DNA of 57,215 nt from an uncultured Gammaproteobacteria bacterium (GTDB lineage: Bacteria; Patescibacteriota; Microgenomatia; Levybacterales; UBA12049). Shown in pieces: positions 5,823 to 57,215 of the stretch. Position 1 is the first letter of the stretch; each line of letters opens with the position of its first letter. The translations under genes and the position numbers were made by a program. A model generated the notes under the pieces. That model had not been told where the DNA came from, did not search any database, and worked only from the letters and a program-made list of their open reading frames with translations. The stretch lies in assembly GCA_964483115.1 (NCBI GenBank), contig CAYZZF010000001.1, positions 85,907 through 143,121 of the forward strand. Reading direction: 5' to 3'.

Positions 5823-7268
5823 ATGAAGAGAATAGAGATTCTTTTAGTGATATTGATTTTACTTGGGGCGTTTTTAGTAAGGCTTTATAAATTCAATAAT
5901 CCTGTTGCAGACTGGCAGTCTTGGCGCCAGGCAGATACGTCTGCAGTATCTCGTAATTTTATTAAAAAGGGATTTGATATTCTGCATCCAAGATTCGATG
6001 ATTTATCAAATGTTCCTTCAAATTTTTTCGACAACCCTAATGGCTACCGTTTCGTAGAATTTCCAATTTATAACATTGCTCAGGCTGGAGTTTTTAAAAT
6101 TTTTGACCGTTTTACAATTGAAGAGTGGGGGAGGCTCATTTCGATTCTTTCATCCCTTGCCGCATCCCTTTTTATTTTCTTAATAGTTAAAAAACATCAA
6201 AGTAAACTTGCAGGATTTCTGGCTCTTTTCTTTTTTGCCTTTCTTCCCTACAACATTTATTACAGCAGAACTATTTTACCCGATGTAATGATGCTCGCGA
6301 CGTTACTTGGAGGAATATTTTTCTTTGATCTATGGCTTGAAAGAAAAAGATTTACGATCTACGATCTACGATTTACGATTACACTTATTTTTACTGCTTC
6401 ATCTTTACTTCTTAAACCTTTTGCTTTATTTTTTACTCTACCTTTAGTTTATCTTGCTTTCAATAAATTCGGGTTTAGCTTTTTAAAAAAGTGGCAATTA
6501 TGGCTTTTTCTTTTTATCGCCATAGCGCCACTTGCATTTTGGAGAATATGGATGCTTCAGTATCCCGCGGGAATACCCAGAAGCGATTGGCTTTTTAATA
6601 TGAATGATATTAGATTTAAAGGGGCGTTTTTTTCGTGGTTATTTGACAAAAGAATAGCCAATTTAATTTTAGGTGCATGGGGATTGCCTCTTTTTATTCT
6701 GGGGTTATTGTCTAAAACCAACAAAAAAAGCTATGTTTTCTTTCTAACATTTCTAATATCTTCTCTTTTATATATTTTCGTTGTCGCAGGCGGCAATGTA
6801 CAGCATGACTACTACCAAATTCCTATAGTACCAAGTCTAATTATATTCGTTTCTTTAGGTGGTGAATATCTTCTTACGCTAAATACATCGCTTTTAAGAC
6901 GTAGTCTAGGTCTTTTATTATTTGTTATTCTTGCACTATTTATGTTTGCCTTTTCCTGGCAAGATATTCGTGCTTATTATAATATAAATAACCCAGCTAT
7001 TGTTCGTGCTGGACGAGCAGTTGATAGACTAATTCCAGAAAATGCAAAAGTAATAGCCCCCTATGAGGGGGACACATCATTTCTATATCAAATAAAAAGA
7101 CAAGGATGGGCTAGTTTTGAAAAACCGCTGCCTCAAATGATTAAAATGGGAGCAGACTATCTTGTCTTGGTTAATCCCCAAAAAAAAGATTATGATATAG
7201 GAAAGACCTATAAAATAGTTTCGGCAACCCCGGATTATATATTGTTTAATCTTCACCAAAAGCCATGA
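5823..7268 (+). CDS. GT-C type membrane glycosyltransferase (ArnT/PMT-like, family 39/83-like)
   Basis: 481-aa polytopic ORF. The N-terminal loop ADWQSWRQADTSAVSRNF and overall topology are typical of GT-C enzymes that use lipid-linked sugar donors. Confidence 0.55.
   Translation: MKRIEILLVILILLGAFLVRLYKFNNPVADWQSWRQADTSAVSRNFIKKGFDILHPRFDDLSNVPSNFFDNPNGYRFVEFPIYNIAQAGVFKIFDRFTIEEWGRLISILSSLAASLFIFLIVKKHQSKLAGFLALFFFAFLPYNIYYSRTILPDVMMLATLLGGIFFFDLWLERKRFTIYDLRFTITLIFTASSLLLKPFALFFTLPLVYLAFNKFGFSFLKKWQLWLFLFIAIAPLAFWRIWMLQYPAGIPRSDWLFNMNDIRFKGAFFSWLFDKRIANLILGAWGLPLFILGLLSKTNKKSYVFFLTFLISSLLYIFVVAGGNVQHDYYQIPIVPSLIIFVSLGGEYLLTLNTSLLRRSLGLLLFVILALFMFAFSWQDIRAYYNINNPAIVRAGRAVDRLIPENAKVIAPYEGDTSFLYQIKRQGWASFEKPLPQMIKMGADYLVLVNPQKKDYDIGKTYKIVSATPDYILFNLHQKP
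6351..6380 (+). repeat. Heptamer array TNTACGA x4 in GT-C gene
   Basis: tttacga tctacga tctacga tttacga. Encodes RFTIYDLRFTI. The unit composition differs from the A-rich arrays, but the 7-bp period is the same. Confidence 0.85.
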
Positions 7269-8467
7269 AGATACTAATGGTTTCATCATATTTGCCCTAC
7301 CCATTATTTTCAGGAGGCCATATTCGCCTGTACAATTTATTGAAAAATCTTTCTGAAAATTACGATATAGTGTTGGTTTGTGAGAAAAGACCTTATCAAA
7401 CAGAGAAGGATGTAAAAGAAGTTGAAAAACTTTGCAGGACGTTGATAACTTTTGATAGAAAAAGAGCCTGGTCGTTAAAAAATGTATTAAAAACAGGTTT
7501 TTCGACCAATCCATTTTTATTAACGACTCATAGAAATTTAAAAATGAAAAGAGAAATTGAAGATCTTCTGAAAAAAGAAAAATTTGATTTAGTTCATGTT
7601 GAAACATTCTACGTGATGCAAAACCTGCCTAAAGTTTCAATTCCCGTAGTTTTAACAGAACACAATATAGAATATCAAATTTACAAAAGATATAAAGATA
7701 GTGTTGCATTTTTTCTTCGCCCATTGCTAAATATAGATATTTTAAAGCTTGAAAATCAGGAAGAAAAATTTTGGAAAAGAGCAAATTGCGTCGTTACAGT
7801 TTCAAAAGAAGATAAAGAAATAATAGAGATGTTTAATAGGAGAGTTTATATGGTGCCAAATGGAGTCGACCTGGAAAAATTCAAAATTCAAAATTCAAAA
7901 TTCAAAATTGATAAAAAAGAAAAGACTGTACTCTTTATTGGCGATTTTAAATGGGTACAAAATAGAGATTCACTGGAGTGGATATTAAAAAAAATATGGC
8001 CATTGTTCAAATCAAAAGTCAAAAGTCAAAAGTCAAAAGTCAAATTGTGGGTGGTTGGAAAAAATATTCCTGATAAGTTTAAAAATCCTAAAAATACAAT
8101 GTTGGACCTCGTTGTTGATGGGAATGCGCCGGATGACACCACTCAGATTTTTCAAAAAGCAGATCTTCTTCTTTCTCCCATCAGAGTGGGAGGCGGAACA
8201 AGCTATAAAATACTTGAAGCAATGGCATCTGGAGTTCCTATCATTACAACTAAATTAGGAGCAGATCCTCTTGGTGCAGTAGATGGTAAAGAAATTATTA
8301 TTTCTGAAGATGAGGAAGAGATTGCAGACAAAATTATAAGTTTGTTAAACGATAGAGGTCTTTATGAAAAAATCGCAAAGAATGCGCGGAAATTAGTCGA
8401 GAAGAAATATGATTGGAAAAAAATTACGAAAAAACTAGAAGATGTTTACCTTTCAGTTGTTCATTGA
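7265..8467 (+). CDS. Glycosyltransferase family 4
   Basis: 400-aa ORF with VGGGTSYKILEAMASGVPIITT and NGVD motifs. Overlaps the upstream stop by 4 nt. Carries two perfect 4-unit heptamer arrays. Confidence 0.85.
   Translation: MKILMVSSYLPYPLFSGGHIRLYNLLKNLSENYDIVLVCEKRPYQTEKDVKEVEKLCRTLITFDRKRAWSLKNVLKTGFSTNPFLLTTHRNLKMKREIEDLLKKEKFDLVHVETFYVMQNLPKVSIPVVLTEHNIEYQIYKRYKDSVAFFLRPLLNIDILKLENQEEKFWKRANCVVTVSKEDKEIIEMFNRRVYMVPNGVDLEKFKIQNSKFKIDKKEKTVLFIGDFKWVQNRDSLEWILKKIWPLFKSKVKSQKSKVKLWVVGKNIPDKFKNPKNTMLDLVVDGNAPDDTTQIFQKADLLLSPIRVGGGTSYKILEAMASGVPIITTKLGADPLGAVDGKEIIISEDEEEIADKIISLLNDRGLYEKIAKNARKLVEKKYDWKKITKKLEDVYLSVVH
7875..7909 (+). repeat. Heptamer array CAAAATT x4 perfect (+1 variant) in GT4 gene
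   Basis: aaaaatt caaaatt caaaatt caaaatt caaaatt. Encodes KFKIQNSKFKI. Confidence 0.95.
8005..8046 (+). repeat. Heptamer array TCAAAAG x4 perfect (+2 variants) in GT4 gene
   Basis: gttcaaa tcaaaag x4 tcaaatt. Encodes FKSKVKSQKSKVKL. Confidence 0.95.
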
Positions 8468-52936: not shown

Positions 52937-53182
52937 ATGGCACATACAAAAACACAAGGAGCAGTTAAAGGGAATAGAGATTCAATCGCTAAACGTTTGG
53001 GTATTAAAATATATGGTGGGCAAAAGGCAGAACCTGGAAATATTATCGTAAGGCAAAGAGGGACTAAGTTTTTTAAGGGAAGAGGTGTTTTAATGGGACG
53101 AGATTTTACGCTTTTTGCAAAGCTTTCCGGTATAGTTTCTTTTAAGACAGCAAAAGGTAAAAAGATAGTTGAGGTAATCTAG
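52937..53182 (+). CDS. rpmA: 50S ribosomal protein L27
   Basis: [29 protein letters not shown]...[10 protein letters not shown] is canonical L27. There is no cleavable N-terminal extension. Confidence 0.92.
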
Positions 53183-53197
53183 AAAAGTTTTAGCAAT

Positions 53198-54043
53198 ATG
53201 GATGAGCAAAAAGAAAAGGTTTTTGAACTTGACACAGGTCATCTGCAATCAAATCCCCTTCAGCCCCGCGCTACAATTTCTCCTGAATCGCTAAGTGAAT
53301 TAGTTGAATCCATACGAGAACAGGGAATTTTGGAGCCATTGGTTGTTGCAAGGACTCCGGCAGGCTATCAGATTATCGCAGGAGAGCGAAGATGGAGAGC
53401 TGCTAAAATTTTAGGTCTTGCTACAGTACCGGTTATTGTTAGAGAGACCTCGCCTCAAGCAATGCTTGAGATGTCTATAGTTGAAAATATTCAACGTGAA
53501 GATCTTAATCCAATTGAAAGAGCCCTTGCGTATAGAAGATTGATTGATGAATTTGGTCTTGGTACAAATGAAGTTGCCAAAAGAGTTGGAAAAAGTGCTC
53601 CTGCTGTTTCAAACACAATAAGACTTTTAACACTTCCTGATGCCATAAAAGATGCTCTCATTGCAGGAGTTATTACCGAGGGGCATGTTCGTCCCCTCAT
53701 CTCTCTTGGGGATCAAAGGTTAATGCTTGACTTATTTAAAAAAATACTCCGTGAAAACAGCACAGTTAGACAGACTGAAGATATGGCTCGTCAGGCAAAA
53801 GCAGAGATTCAAAAAAAGGAGCCTCAAAAAAAACGTGACAAACTCTGGATTCCAGAACAAGATGAGATGGCAAGAGAGCTAGAAAAGAAATTGGACGTTG
53901 ATAGGGTAATAATCACACAATCACGTACTCTTGGTCGGATAACCATTGTTGTCCGTGGGGAAGCAGAAGAAACTACGTCCAGAATTAAAGAGATTCATGA
54001 CTGCTTGGTGAGCTACGATAAATTTACAAATAAAAATTCTTAA
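53198..54043 (+). CDS. parB: ParB/Spo0J-family partition protein
   Basis: LQSNPLQPR, GILEPLVV, IIAGERRWRAAKILGL (ParB box II), HTH region, C-terminal dimerisation segment. Confidence 0.85.
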   Translation: MDEQKEKVFELDTGHLQSNPLQPRATISPESLSELVESIREQGILEPLVVARTPAGYQIIAGERRWRAAKILGLATVPVIVRETSPQAMLEMSIVENIQREDLNPIERALAYRRLIDEFGLGTNEVAKRVGKSAPAVSNTIRLLTLPDAIKDALIAGVITEGHVRPLISLGDQRLMLDLFKKILRENSTVRQTEDMARQAKAEIQKKEPQKKRDKLWIPEQDEMARELEKKLDVDRVIITQSRTLGRITIVVRGEAEETTSRIKEIHDCLVSYDKFTNKNS

Positions 54044-54600
54044 GGATTTTTTACAGGTCCCATTCTATTTAATGGCCAGTATACAAAGAAAGATTTTCCT
54101 ATAATAGATTTTCTTGGAAGAAAGCCCCATTCTCTTGAGTCAGAACTAAAGGAGCGATTATCTCCCAAAACAAAATATTCATCCTTTGGTACAGTTATTT
54201 CAGCCCCCTCTTTTAGAAATGATCCCCCATATGTTAAAACACCTGGCTTAAGATACCTGCTCTCATCAAGTTTTTTTCCGTTGAGATATACATAGCCATT
54301 TTTAAGAGAAACTTTATCGTTTGGTGCTCCAATTATTCTTTTTATGTAATCTTTTTCAGGATCGGGCGGAGCCTTAAAAACTACTACTTCTCCGCGTTTT
54401 GGATTCTGAAAATCAAGCGTAATTATATTGGTCAAAATATACTCCTTATCGTAAAAATTAGGGAACATTGAGTCACCATTTACCTGAAAGGGACGAAAAA
54501 GAAAAACGTATATGACCAAGAATACAGCAGCGGCTAAAAGGAGCGTTTCTACTATATCAATAAGAAATGCGTAAACTTTTCTAATTAAAGATAAAACCAT
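54040..54600 (-). CDS. lepB: Signal peptidase I
   Basis: N-terminal TM segment, catalytic Ser in NGDSMFPNF, Lys in KRIIGAPND, and the GDNRSFSSDSREWG box. Confidence 0.85.
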   Translation of the reverse strand: MVLSLIRKVYAFLIDIVETLLLAAAVFLVIYVFLFRPFQVNGDSMFPNFYDKEYILTNIITLDFQNPKRGEVVVFKAPPDPEKDYIKRIIGAPNDKVSLKNGYVYLNGKKLDESRYLKPGVLTYGGSFLKEGAEITVPKDEYFVLGDNRSFSSDSREWGFLPRKSIIGKSFFVYWPLNRMGPVKNP

Positions 54601-54628
54601 ATTTCAATTGTCTTAAATTTAGCCTCTT

Positions 54629-54657
54629 TTGTCAATTAGAATAATTTATGGTAAGAT
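54629..54657 (+). promoter_or_regulatory. Candidate promoter of the tRNA locus: TTGTCA-17-(TGg)TAAGAT
   Basis: ttgtca at 54629-54634, a 17-nt spacer, taagat at 54652-54657. The predicted TSS at ~54664 is just before the tRNA-like sequence. Confidence 0.45.
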
Positions 54658-54668
54658 GTTGTTTGTCT

Positions 54669-54705
54669 GGACCCGTAGCTTAGTGGTAGACCTCCGACCC
54701 TGAAT
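54669..54705 (+). pseudogene. Orphan tRNA 5'-half-like element (acceptor strand plus D-arm-like), directly abutting tRNA-Val
   Basis: GGACCCG-TA-GCTTAGTGGTAGACC... is 37 nt. 18 of its first 24 nt match the tRNA-Val 5' half. GGACCCG is perfectly complementary to the tRNA-Val 3' acceptor strand CGGGTCC. No anticodon stem or T-arm of its own. Confidence 0.35.
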
Positions 54706-54777
54706 GGACTCGTGGTTCAGAGGTAGAACGCTCGCTTCACATGCGAGAGGTCGATGGTTCGATTCCATCCGGGTCCA
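54706..54777 (+). tRNA. tRNA-Val (anticodon CAC)
   Basis: Hand-folded cloverleaf. Acceptor GGACTCG/CGGGTCC (one G-U), D-arm GTTC-AGAGGTA-GAAC, anticodon arm CTCGC-TTCACAT-GCGAG, variable AGGTC, T-arm GATGG-TTCGATT-CCATC, discriminator A. CCA is not encoded. Confidence 0.85.
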
Positions 54778-54846
54778 CAAAGTCCAATCAGGCAGGGCGT
54801 TCGATTCGCATTCGAAAGGCCGGGGGTTCGAGACTCTCCGGATCTA
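54771..54846 (+). tRNA. Non-canonical tRNA-Ala(CGC)-like element overlapping the last 7 nt of tRNA-Val
   Basis: Perfect anticodon arm TTCGA-TTCGCAT-TCGAA, variable AGGCC, T-arm GGGGG-TTCGAGA-CTCTC (G53-C61 kept, two G-U). Acceptor GGGTCCA/CGGATCT pairs at 6 of 7 positions and includes G3:U70 with an A73 discriminator. The D-arm GTCC-AATCAGGCA-GGGC needs a 4-nt (not 2-nt) connector. Confidence 0.3.
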
Positions 54847-54888
54847 TCTAACTATTGCCTCCAAACTAAAGAAGAAAGACGAGAAAGA

Positions 54889-55932
54889 ATGAAAGTTTTA
54901 TTTTTGACAAGGCTTTTTTATCCCCATATTGGTGGGGTTGAAAAGCATGTGTATGAAATTAGTAAACGACTTATTAAATTAGGATACGAGGTTACTGTTG
55001 TAACCGAAACTATTACTCATCAACTCAAAACTCAAAATTCAAATCTTGACAAAATAGGAATTTTAAGAATTCCAGTTGGTAAAGATGACTGGTTTAAAAA
55101 GTTTAGAATTTGGAGAGAAGTTTGGAAGACCAGAAAACTTATTCAAGACGCAGATGTTATACATTGCCATGATGTTTTTTTCTGGTATTTGCCCTTTCGA
55201 TTTATTTATCCATCAAAACCTGTTTATACCACTTTTCACGGGTACGAGGGAAACAAAATTCCTTCCAAAAAAGCAATTTTAATGCATAAAATTGCAGAAA
55301 AACTGTCAAAAGGCAATATTTGTATTGGAGATTTTTTGAAAAAGTGGTATGGAACACGGCCAACTTACGTCACCTATGGCGCAGTCAAAATCCAAAATCC
55401 AAAATTCAAAATAAATTCAAAATTGAAAATACTCTTTTTAGGGAGAATTGAGGAAGAGACAGGGATTATGGAATACTTGAAGGCATTAAAGATTTTAAAG
55501 GATAAAAGGCAAAGCTTTGAATTAACAGTTTTAGGAGACGGGTCATTGAGAGATAAATCAGAAAAGTTCTCTAAAAAAAATAATTTAAAGGTAGTCTTTA
55601 AAGGATTTATAAAGGACGTGAACAAATTTATTCTTCAGTCAAATTATGTGTTCGCTTCAAGATATTTGGGAATTTTGGAGGGATTGGCAGCTAAAAAATT
55701 TGTTTTTGCACAATATAATAATGCGATAAAAAAGGATTATTTAAAAATGGCTCCTTTTGTCAAGTTCATATCCATTGCAAAAAACTATCAAGAGCTTTCA
55801 AGTCAAATAGAATTTTTTCTTAAAAACGAATCAGAAAGAAACCAGAAGATTATGGGCGGATTTTATTGGGTCTCGGGTCAGACTTGGGACAAAGTTGTAG
55901 AAATCTATTTAAGACTGTGGGATTTTAGGTAA
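54889..55932 (+). CDS. Glycosyltransferase (GT4-like, GT-B fold)
   Basis: MKVLFLTRLFYPHIGGVEKHVYEISKRL is a typical GT4 N-terminus. The ATG at 54889 is chosen because the 54754 start in the track runs through the tRNA genes. Carries two heptamer arrays. Confidence 0.7.
   Translation: MKVLFLTRLFYPHIGGVEKHVYEISKRLIKLGYEVTVVTETITHQLKTQNSNLDKIGILRIPVGKDDWFKKFRIWREVWKTRKLIQDADVIHCHDVFFWYLPFRFIYPSKPVYTTFHGYEGNKIPSKKAILMHKIAEKLSKGNICIGDFLKKWYGTRPTYVTYGAVKIQNPKFKINSKLKILFLGRIEEETGIMEYLKALKILKDKRQSFELTVLGDGSLRDKSEKFSKKNNLKVVFKGFIKDVNKFILQSNYVFASRYLGILEGLAAKKFVFAQYNNAIKKDYLKMAPFVKFISIAKNYQELSSQIEFFLKNESERNQKIMGGFYWVSGQTWDKVVEIYLRLWDFR
55016..55047 (+). repeat. Heptamer array ACTCAAA-type x3-4 in GT4-like gene
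   Basis: ctcatca actcaaa actcaaa attcaaa. Encodes HQLKTQNSNL. Confidence 0.8.
55384..55432 (+). repeat. Heptamer array TCCAAAA/TTCAAAA-type x6-7 in GT4-like gene
   Basis: gtcaaaa tccaaaa tccaaaa ttcaaaa taaattc aaaattg aaaatac. Encodes VKIQNPKFKINSKLKI. Confidence 0.85.
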
Positions 55933-57215
55933 TTTATATCATAAAGCAGAATTTGATACGTCTTCTCACTAATTATATTTACACGCGGTACTGAGTGCAA
56001 AGCGTTAAGAAGTCTTTCAAAAATATTAAGTTCAGTCAAAGAGACTTTCCGTAACCCTCTGTCATAGTTATTTTTAGCATTCTTTGCTACAGCCAAAAGT
56101 GAATTAGCTGAGCCATTATTTATCAATTTTAAACTCTGTGCTTCTTTAATATCATCAATCAAGTTTTGAAAACTGACTACTCGTTCCGAGGTTGGATTTT
56201 GGTCTTGTGAATAATCTAAACTGAAGGTATCATCTTCATTCGCACCAAGCGTCCCCTCTTTTTTGTAAAGAGAATTAATTCCATCTTTTTGAAATGTCGA
56301 TAGATTAATAGTATAAAAAGTGTTTGCGTTCTTTGAAAGAGTAATTTTATACTTCCCGTTAGAAGGCTGCGGAAGCAGAAATTCGTTAACTCCTGTTCCT
56401 AACTGTTCTTTATTGCCACGAGCATCAGGGTTTTCTATCGGACCCTCAAAAGAATATGTTGCGTTTGGAATTTGGTTAAAAACTTGCGTTTGTCCATTGT
56501 GGATATATTTTCCTGTCTTATTGTTTTCCGGATCTGTAACAAGCACCTCAACATCAGGATTTACAGCAATCACAATATAGCTTAGGTTAGTATTAGAGGG
56601 AACATATCTGTCAACTTGAGTATAAGAGTTACCAAATGAGGAAAGGTCAGCAACATTCCATTCAGGATCGTTTATAGCATAAGTGCTGTCTAATTTTCCT
56701 TTTACAACAACAAAATGGCTGGAAGTTGAAGCATTGTTAACACCTAAGATATCAGGAAATTTATCTACCGTCAGATCTTTATTAATTAAATCAGTGGTGG
56801 CGTTACTTGGATACGCACGATTATGGACAAGCTTTATAGACGATTTTCCTGCATCATATAATTTTTTTGTGAGCGTTCCTATCACAGGCCAATTAAAATA
56901 TGAATACCAGCCACTGCTTCCTTCTCCATAAAGATAGCCGTTGTTATTCTTAAGCCATACATTAAGAGATCCTGGGTCTATTGGTGTTCCGTCTGCAAAT
57001 TCTTTTATGTTATGGAAGTTAAGAACCATTGCCGCCGATGTTACTACACAGCCCCATCTATCCATTGTCGGGTCAGAAGCGTTTAATAATTTTGCGTGGT
57101 CATACTCTGTTGGCCCCCAAGGTAAAGAATTTTGACTAAAATAAGGAACGTCTAAATTATTATCGTCAATGCTTGTAACCTTAATATTATCGAACCAAGT
57201 CTCCGAATTTGGGTC
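55905..57215 (-). CDS. Peptidase C39-like (papain-fold) domain protein, 5' end beyond the window
   Basis: The frame stays open upstream of the track's Met to the window edge. VPYFSQNSLPWGPTEYDH...MDRWGCVVTSAAMVLNFHN matches the Peptidase_C39_2-type pattern (vPyysQ ... gCgptslaMvl). A ~330-aa C-terminal region has unknown function. Confidence 0.55.
   Translation of the reverse strand, partial: DPNSETWFDNIKVTSIDDNNLDVPYFSQNSLPWGPTEYDHAKLLNASDPTMDRWGCVVTSAAMVLNFHNIKEFADGTPIDPGSLNVWLKNNNGYLYGEGSSGWYSYFNWPVIGTLTKKLYDAGKSSIKLVHNRAYPSNATTDLINKDLTVDKFPDILGVNNASTSSHFVVVKGKLDSTYAINDPEWNVADLSSFGNSYTQVDRYVPSNTNLSYIVIAVNPDVEVLVTDPENNKTGKYIHNGQTQVFNQIPNATYSFEGPIENPDARGNKEQLGTGVNEFLLPQPSNGKYKITLSKNANTFYTINLSTFQKDGINSLYKKEGTLGANEDDTFSLDYSQDQNPTSERVVSFQNLIDDIKEAQSLKLINNGSANSLLAVAKNAKNNYDRGLRKVSLTELNIFERLLNALHSVPRVNIISEKTYQILLYDINYLKSHSLK

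Follow-up and report, generated by a model that had tools for sequence, protein, structure and literature searches.

Positions 54669-54846 of the window (the whole stretch of 57,215 nucleotides that we analysed) are very probably a nested tRNA locus, in which a working tRNA-Val gene lies inside a dead tRNA-Val gene. This is the best explanation for the locus as a whole. A cassette of 106 nt (54691-54796) separates positions 23 and 24 of the outer tRNA, within its D stem. At the core of the cassette is a complete tRNA-Val(CAC), set off by a short leader from a GC-rich 5' arm and by a short trailer from a 3' arm; the two arms pair with each other. We refer to the outer tRNA as the shell and to the inner one as the cargo. 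The features of the locus and its neighbors are:

54040..54600, minus strand: lepB (signal peptidase I), the divergent neighbor (Pfam Peptidase_S26, 160 bits)
54629..54657, plus strand: promoter-like site (TTGTCA, a 17-nt spacer, and a TG-extended TAAGAT), 11 nt 5' of the shell
54669..54690, plus strand: 5' part of the shell, positions 1-23 of the former resident tRNA-Val(CAC), matching the uninterrupted lepB-linked genes
54691..54705, plus strand: cassette 5' arm and leader, CCTCCGAC CCTGAAT
54706..54777 (54778 is the end given by ARAGORN), plus strand: cargo, an intact tRNA-Val(CAC) (ARAGORN; Rfam tRNA model, 69 bits)
54778..54796, plus strand: trailer and cassette 3' arm, CAAA GTCCAATCAGGCAGG, pairing with the 5' arm
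54797..54846, plus strand: 3' part of the shell, positions 24-73 of the former tRNA-Val(CAC)
54889..55932, plus strand: family 4 glycosyltransferase gene (Pfam Glyco_transf_4 and Glycos_transf_1)

The 5' part of the shell covers the 5' strand of the acceptor stem, the 5' strand of the D stem, the D loop, and the GA of the 3' strand of the D stem. The 3' part now reads CGC at the anticodon and has two G·U pairs in its T stem, and A73 follows its 3' acceptor strand (CGGATCT). If 54669-54690 is joined to 54797-54846, ARAGORN at default settings recognises the result as a tRNA, a cloverleaf of 72 nt. The cargo is the only CAC isoacceptor that we found in the genome, and its CCA is not encoded. The arms resemble those of a family of cassettes that is described below: the 5' arm and leader are a decayed copy of CCTGCCCGAC TTTGAAT (compared with loci L002/L072, L073, and L075), and the 3' arm differs by two G-to-A changes from GTCCAGTCAGGCGGG.

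We first recognised the nest because in several relatives a complete tRNA-Val is flanked by two pieces that pair perfectly through their outer 7-nt strands. Run on the window at default settings, ARAGORN reports a single gene, the tRNA-Val(CAC) at 54706-54778, and the nest also escapes its intron mode, since the insert lies outside the anticodon loop. The same excision scan found no second nest among the genome's other 39 tRNAs, only artefacts from neighboring tRNAs. We also discarded Rfam hits to YrlA (a Y RNA-like RNA) and to permuted tmRNA, which were far under threshold and are explained by a T arm that is followed by a D-arm-like stretch.

A preliminary description of this sequence had placed all of the pieces correctly but parsed them differently, as an orphan 5' half (54669-54705), a canonical tRNA-Val(CAC), and an overlapping tRNA-Ala(CGC)-like element. 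The canonical tRNA-Val and the promoter-like site upstream of it stand. The 5' look-alike also exists, but it is really positions 1-23 of the shell plus 15 nt of insert. Similarly, the third element does have D, anticodon (CGC), and T arms, but it consists of positions 24-73 of the shell preceded by 19 nt of insert.

Could the third element be a non-canonical tRNA-Ala(CGC) that overlaps the tRNA-Val by the latter's final 7 nt, so that processing of one excludes the other? We find this scarcely credible. ARAGORN does report a tRNA-Ala at 54771-54846, but not at its default settings; it had to be relaxed to -ps80, and so we consider this model a mis-parse. The model also needs a 4-nt connector, a 7-66 mismatch, and G1·U72. 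A second Rfam tRNA match (54781-54838, anticodon CGC) scores 27.1 bits, which is not at background level but is just under the gathering score of 29, and no acceptor stem is aligned. In a functional tRNA-Ala, the acceptor stem would be paired and include G3:U70, and the covariance score would exceed the threshold; neither is seen here. The G3:U70 pair of the preliminary description disappears in the pairing that homology supports: CGGAUCU pairs with the upstream GGACCCG, which puts A-U at 3:70, along with a C4·A69 mismatch. The nested parse, in contrast, accounts for every base and is backed by homology. The preliminary description had named background-level covariance scores, a normal tRNA-Ala set elsewhere, and flanks that are not conserved in relatives as evidence against a functional composite, and this is largely what we found: the genome contains canonical tRNA-Ala genes with anticodons CGC (contig C4:3754-3825), GGC, and UGC, and the gene at this locus is plain in most relatives.

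The resident gene and the decay of the shell

We used lepB as the synteny anchor for comparing this locus across genomes. The order lepB, promoter, tRNA-Val(CAC) is common to 14 genomes, of which 11 have a plain gene and three, including the window, have a nest at 23/24. Nearly all of these 14 syntenic loci share the placement of the TTGTCAA motif. In G007 and G028, a different cassette occupies the same position (23/24) of the lepB-linked gene, and elsewhere the lepB-linked gene holds other cassettes at other positions.

The shell's CGC anticodon is a mutated CAC, as its anticodon arm departs from the plain genes of four relatives (L010, L013, L015, and L026) by A35G alone: both strands of the stem are identical and six of the seven loop positions agree. 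To compare decay, we scored the shell and the cargo at the 40 columns that are invariant across the 11 plain genes. Five of the 40 are changed in the shell, all without compensation, and the shell also has the C4·A69 mismatch. The cargo's sole departure from the invariant columns is one compensated pair (11-24). Thus, the shell is decaying and the cargo is without such decay.

Three tRNA-Val shells have altered anticodons although their cloverleaves are otherwise intact or almost so, and all of the anticodon changes are transitions: CAC to CGC in the window (54829-54835), CAC to CGU in L031 (G028:C37), and GAC to GAU in L179 (G038:C5). In the shell at G028:C37, the anticodon changes are the only uncompensated changes at invariant columns. 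Chance may explain these changes; alternatively, a broken tRNA to which ValRS still binds may be selected against.

A tandem duplication of tRNA-Val genes followed by decay, with no mobile cassette, might seem simpler. All three pieces do derive from tRNA-Val, and the best match of the third element within the genome is the adjacent tRNA-Val. However, the two flanks complement each other exactly at 23/24, which is not expected of a tandem array. Also, identity between the cargo and its own shell is only 71%, whereas cargoes and plain genes of other genomes match the cargo at 92-95% (95% for both the plain gene of L088 and the cargo of L101), and identical arms flank other kinds of tRNA in other genomes. 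Given these patterns, a purely local duplication is highly improbable. The "decayed duplicates" of the preliminary description are indeed decayed, but they are not separate duplicates: each is one half of a single resident tRNA-Val(CAC).

Another alternative is that the shell halves are kept for RNA processing, either as a clamp on the precursor that assists folding of the cargo or as a leader and trailer that regulate maturation. The outer acceptor strands pair at six of seven positions, the minimum-free-energy fold pairs both ends, and GGACCCG is fully complementary to the 3' strand of the cargo. This last match had suggested a leader that competes for acceptor-stem pairing, which is not demonstrated: the match is complete here, but other nests pair at only 3-5 of the 7 positions, so it is not conserved. 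(Thermodynamic folding of the 178-nt transcript was uninformative, with no cloverleaves and a z-score of −1.3, which is not significant and so does not favor a processing role either.) Furthermore, most relatives make the same tRNA without a shell, and single halves of the shell have been lost in L101, L081, G002, and G041. We consider a processing role to be very unlikely.

Metagenomic lepB loci point to further independent events. At least 11 of the 55 such loci that bear a tRNA have arms or remnants of a shell. In L076, the closest relative, 23/24 is occupied by an arms-only hairpin and 37/38 by a tRNA cassette, and other loci have partly deleted nests. We also observed, on the minus strand of L079, 3' of the tRNA-Val(CAC), and in L093, a run of short remnants that end in ...TCCA or ...CCCA. 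These look like a graveyard of the 3' ends of successive shells, which suggests repeated rounds of replacement.

Cassettes across the order

The arms of the family have the ends CCTGCCCG ... CAGGCGGG, and the window's cassette was compared above with their full form. The same arms recur within the order and in records titled Candidatus Levybacteria and Gottesmanbacteria. Identical arms are found at three positions within tRNAs: at 23/24 and 37/38 with a tRNA as cargo, and at 56/57 as arms only. When 245 genomes were searched with a general arm pattern, 51 of them yielded 76 matches in total, compared with zero in a reversed control. We fetched 30 arm-pattern loci for a survey, and 24 of them carry a tRNA, of at least 15 kinds. 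Arms and cargo are oriented one way in 14 cases and the other way in 10. (We had initially separated the cassettes into two families, A and B, but the arm-pattern search shows that these have the same arms with the cargo flipped.) No motif is shared by the flanks of 23 insertions.

Exact excision gives back a tRNA in 18 of the 24, always in the same orientation as the cargo. The restored anticodon is that of the cargo in 15 of these 18 and is neighboring or abnormal in the other three. Readable shells are of the cargo's own kind of tRNA, and the identity of cargo to shell in the sampled family ranges from 0.39 to 0.86. Of the sampled shells, three quarters remain intact as cloverleaves. Recent insertion fits this observation, and selection on a spliced shell would fit it as well.

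This raises the question of whether the cassette is an RNA-level intron. The arm helix would mark the stretch to be excised, the shell would be ligated, and one transcript would yield both the cargo and a spliced shell tRNA. Consistent with this idea, the cloverleaves that result from arm-to-arm removal in those 18 family members are perfect, and the arms pair right up to both junctions. Also, the anticodon loop, the D arm, and the T loop are sites of archaeal tRNA introns too. Nevertheless, splicing is unlikely because the junctions lack a bulge-helix-bulge motif (the arms pair without 3-nt bulges) and because we found no match to EndA (PF01974) or RtcB (PF01139) in this 99% complete genome, although control genomes were detected. 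As for self-splicing, a permissive Rfam scan of 53000-57215 found no group I match or other intron family; a group I core takes about 200 nt or more, and the insert has just 106 nt, 72 of which are tRNA. Finally, the window's shell lacks both a Val anticodon and G3:U70 and bears a mismatch in addition to the five uncompensated changes; other shells are destroyed (L075, L076, and L085), and several carry missense anticodons. We therefore judge it very unlikely that the shell is spliced, and we favor a cassette that broke the resident gene at the DNA level.

Hairpins that consist of arms only also occur. In L070 (CAYPUE010000026.1), a tRNA-Val(GAC) shell that already has a tRNA cassette at 23/24 is interrupted again in its T loop (56/57) by a 32-nt arms-only hairpin (CCTGCCCGAC...GGCAGGCGGG), about 34 nt 3' of the cassette match at 7194-7302 (minus strand). 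Comparable hairpins are found directly after stop codons in G095, G106, G109, G203, and G220. In the window's genome, we considered whether small GC-rich hairpins in coding regions are arms-only copies and rejected this (10 vs. 13 in the reversed control). At least one of the coding-region hairpins encodes the stretch FLPRIRQD, which looks like a native conserved motif of a membrane protein.

Candidate movers and known mobile elements

The best candidate for the driver of these cassettes is the small GIY-YIG nucleases that are encoded beside tRNA genes and nests; the association is correlative. Small GIY-YIG genes are very numerous across the order, with 9-16 in each of the arm-rich relatives. 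In five relatives, 18 of the 29 small GIY-YIG genes have a tRNA within about 130 nt (these are related genomes and not independent samples). A small GIY-YIG gene is within 1.5 kb of 7 of the 30 cassette loci, and arm 8-mers are within 1.5 kb of 9 of 30 GIY-YIG loci. GIY-YIG genes are linked to tRNA genes at L225, L094, and L239 (this is linkage only). At the first two (L225:1420-1830, in G163:C11, and L094:1-462, minus strand), which are the same lepB locus, the 5' part of a shell, an ORF for a GIY-YIG protein of 85-90 amino acids, and a complete tRNA-Val(CAC) follow one another in that order, and the 5' part of the shell carries a 39-nt hairpin (ACCCG...CGGGT) in its D loop. This arrangement may be an autonomous form of the element.

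There is no nuclease gene near the cassette in the window. The glycosyltransferase gene begins 42 nt past the shell, so there is no space for one at this locus. The small GIY-YIG complement of this genome (G000) is limited to one broken and one truncated copy. The broken gene (C7:2652-2863; L214, L215) has internal stops and is directly 5' of a tRNA-Cys (C7:2905-2980). The other (contig C32, 9-179) is cut off by the start of the contig.

A weaker candidate is the Y1 transposases of the RAYT type. Their association with the arms is strong at the genome level: RAYT-like genes are present in 44 of the 51 genomes with the arm pattern and in 90 of the 194 without it (naive p = 2e-7, for related genomes that are not independent). 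But none of the 24 Y1/RAYT-like loci that we inspected is flanked by the cassette arms (CCTGCCCG). Where hairpins were seen at these loci, they were other ones, which flank the gene in at least six cases. The 0.8-Mb genome of the window has two RAYT-like Y1 transposase genes (L156:1285-1950, on G000 C3, and L157:1357-1950, on G000 C22), whose best NCBIfam match is REP_Tyr_transpos, under its cut-off; the translation of the second is partly X. The copy on C3 is flanked by hairpins of its own, TTTCACCTTCCAAGTGAAA and a GTAG-tagged palindrome. The TnpB and IS110 families are absent from this genome. No enzyme is tied directly to the arms, as both the GIY-YIG and the Y1 associations are correlative.

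How do the cassettes compare to known systems? First, as with SegB of phage T4, a free-standing GIY-YIG homing endonuclease (PMC2330249), a small nuclease gene is physically linked to tRNA genes, but the cassettes reside in the cellular genomes of bacteria with tiny genomes. As in homing systems in general, linked DNA would be inherited preferentially and an insertion at the target site would immunise the allele, and as with homing introns, there are filled and empty alleles at one orthologous site. However, the insert carries a complete replacement for the gene that it breaks instead of a self-splicing intron. Also, most cassettes, including the window's, lack a nuclease gene, and cutting of the uninterrupted allele at the insertion site, which would define a homing endonuclease element, is a prediction.

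Second, the Ssn proteins are site-specific nucleases that cut single-stranded DNA and are associated with hairpin repeats known as NTS/SRM (Chenal et al. 2025, PMC11893778). The bacteria studied here likewise encode many single-domain GIY-YIG proteins (about 85-130 amino acids) and have many imperfect hairpins of 20-50 nt per genome. As the identity of the hairpin's loop is not required for cleavage by Ssn (PMC11893778), a large loop that holds a cargo is conceivable. Nevertheless, that report mentions neither tRNA genes nor a cargo within the hairpin, and the likeness is a descriptive one. In Ssn systems the cognate hairpin often flanks the nuclease gene; here only the 9 of 30 GIY-YIG loci given above have arm 8-mers nearby.

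Third, REP/REPIN elements (with RAYT, Y1/HUH) and IS200/IS605 also have imperfect GC-rich palindromes and make no target-site duplication, and RAYT-like genes are present here; another likeness to REP/REPIN is the arms-only copies just after stop codons. Yet the cassette arms lack the GTAG or CGTC tag of REP elements (PMC3733652), and although REP palindromes flank their RAYT gene, none of the 24 RAYT-like loci inspected is flanked by the cassette arms. REPINs are extragenic and carry no gene, whereas the cassettes sit in tRNA genes and have a tRNA as cargo. We found no conserved target tetranucleotide for the cassettes, and the 23 insertion flanks share no motif, unlike the insertion of IS200/IS605 3' of a fixed short target. 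DDE-type MITEs fit no better, as the cassettes do have imperfect inverted ends but excision leaves no duplicated bases (in the 18 of 24 and in the window).

Fourth, archaeal tRNA introns and split tRNAs share with the cassettes the location of the insert (the anticodon loop, D arm, or T loop), the exact rejoining of the halves, and, for the introns, the presence of related inserts at different positions. The differences are the bacterial host, the absence of bulge-helix-bulge, EndA, and RtcB, the decay of the shell, and an insert that is itself a complete tRNA of the same kind. Finally, integrative elements that restore the tRNA and Dada transposons, whose targets are small RNA genes (PMC3706591), also target a tRNA gene and preserve tRNA function. 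The cassettes, however, involve no integrase, no kilobase-scale element, and no target-site duplication, and instead of mending the broken gene with a partial duplicate, they bring a whole new gene into it.

Proposed mechanism and implications

To account for the observed anatomy, the empty sites in relatives, the decaying shell, and the recurrent family, we propose that the resident tRNA-Val(CAC), which had its own promoter beside lepB, was split at the DNA level by a promoterless cassette. The cargo would now supply tRNA-Val(CAC), transcribed from the resident promoter. Its release would presumably take RNase P, trimming of the 3' end, and addition of CCA. (An RNase P RNA-like gene and a homologue of the CCA-adding enzyme are present in the genome, and 31 of its 40 tRNAs do not encode CCA.) The shell would not be spliced, and its halves would be decaying by-products. 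The most likely driver would be the tRNA-linked small GIY-YIG nucleases: these would cut the uninterrupted cognate gene, and repair would copy the interrupted donor. The cassette in the window would be non-autonomous or a relic.

Some side observations concern the tRNA machinery of this genome. The RNase P RNA match (contig C14:4715-5033; L170) spans the full length of the model with 72 bits, relative to a gathering score of 100. ARAGORN reports a tRNA-Ile with anticodon TAT at a contig end (G000 C17:12975-13046). We did not find tRNA-Val(TAC), tRNA-Phe, or tRNA-Gly(GCC) in the 33 contigs of G000.

Our searches of full-text literature found no published description of a cassette with this tRNA-in-tRNA layout. 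It is an even question, in our judgment, whether hairpin-bounded promoterless tRNA cassettes are a class of selfish elements in Patescibacteria that has not been described, probably driven in trans by GIY-YIG nucleases, that repeatedly breaks tRNA genes of its own kind while replacing them. Under the same reading, shells decay or are deleted, so horizontally moving copies would continually overwrite tRNA genes.

For the window, the annotation of an "overlapping tRNA" would be replaced by one working tRNA-Val inside a dead one. More broadly, if the selfish-element reading is true, then annotation is affected, as shells and arms would yield false pseudo-tRNAs such as the window's "tRNA-Ala". Phylogenies that are based on tRNAs and ideas about the origin of interrupted tRNA genes would be affected as well. 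The cassettes would be a natural system that somehow targets the gene of its cargo's own kind, and the very numerous small GIY-YIG nucleases of these bacteria would have a possible cellular role. Essential single-copy tRNA genes in these reduced genomes would not be stably inherited but would be replaced repeatedly by mobile copies.
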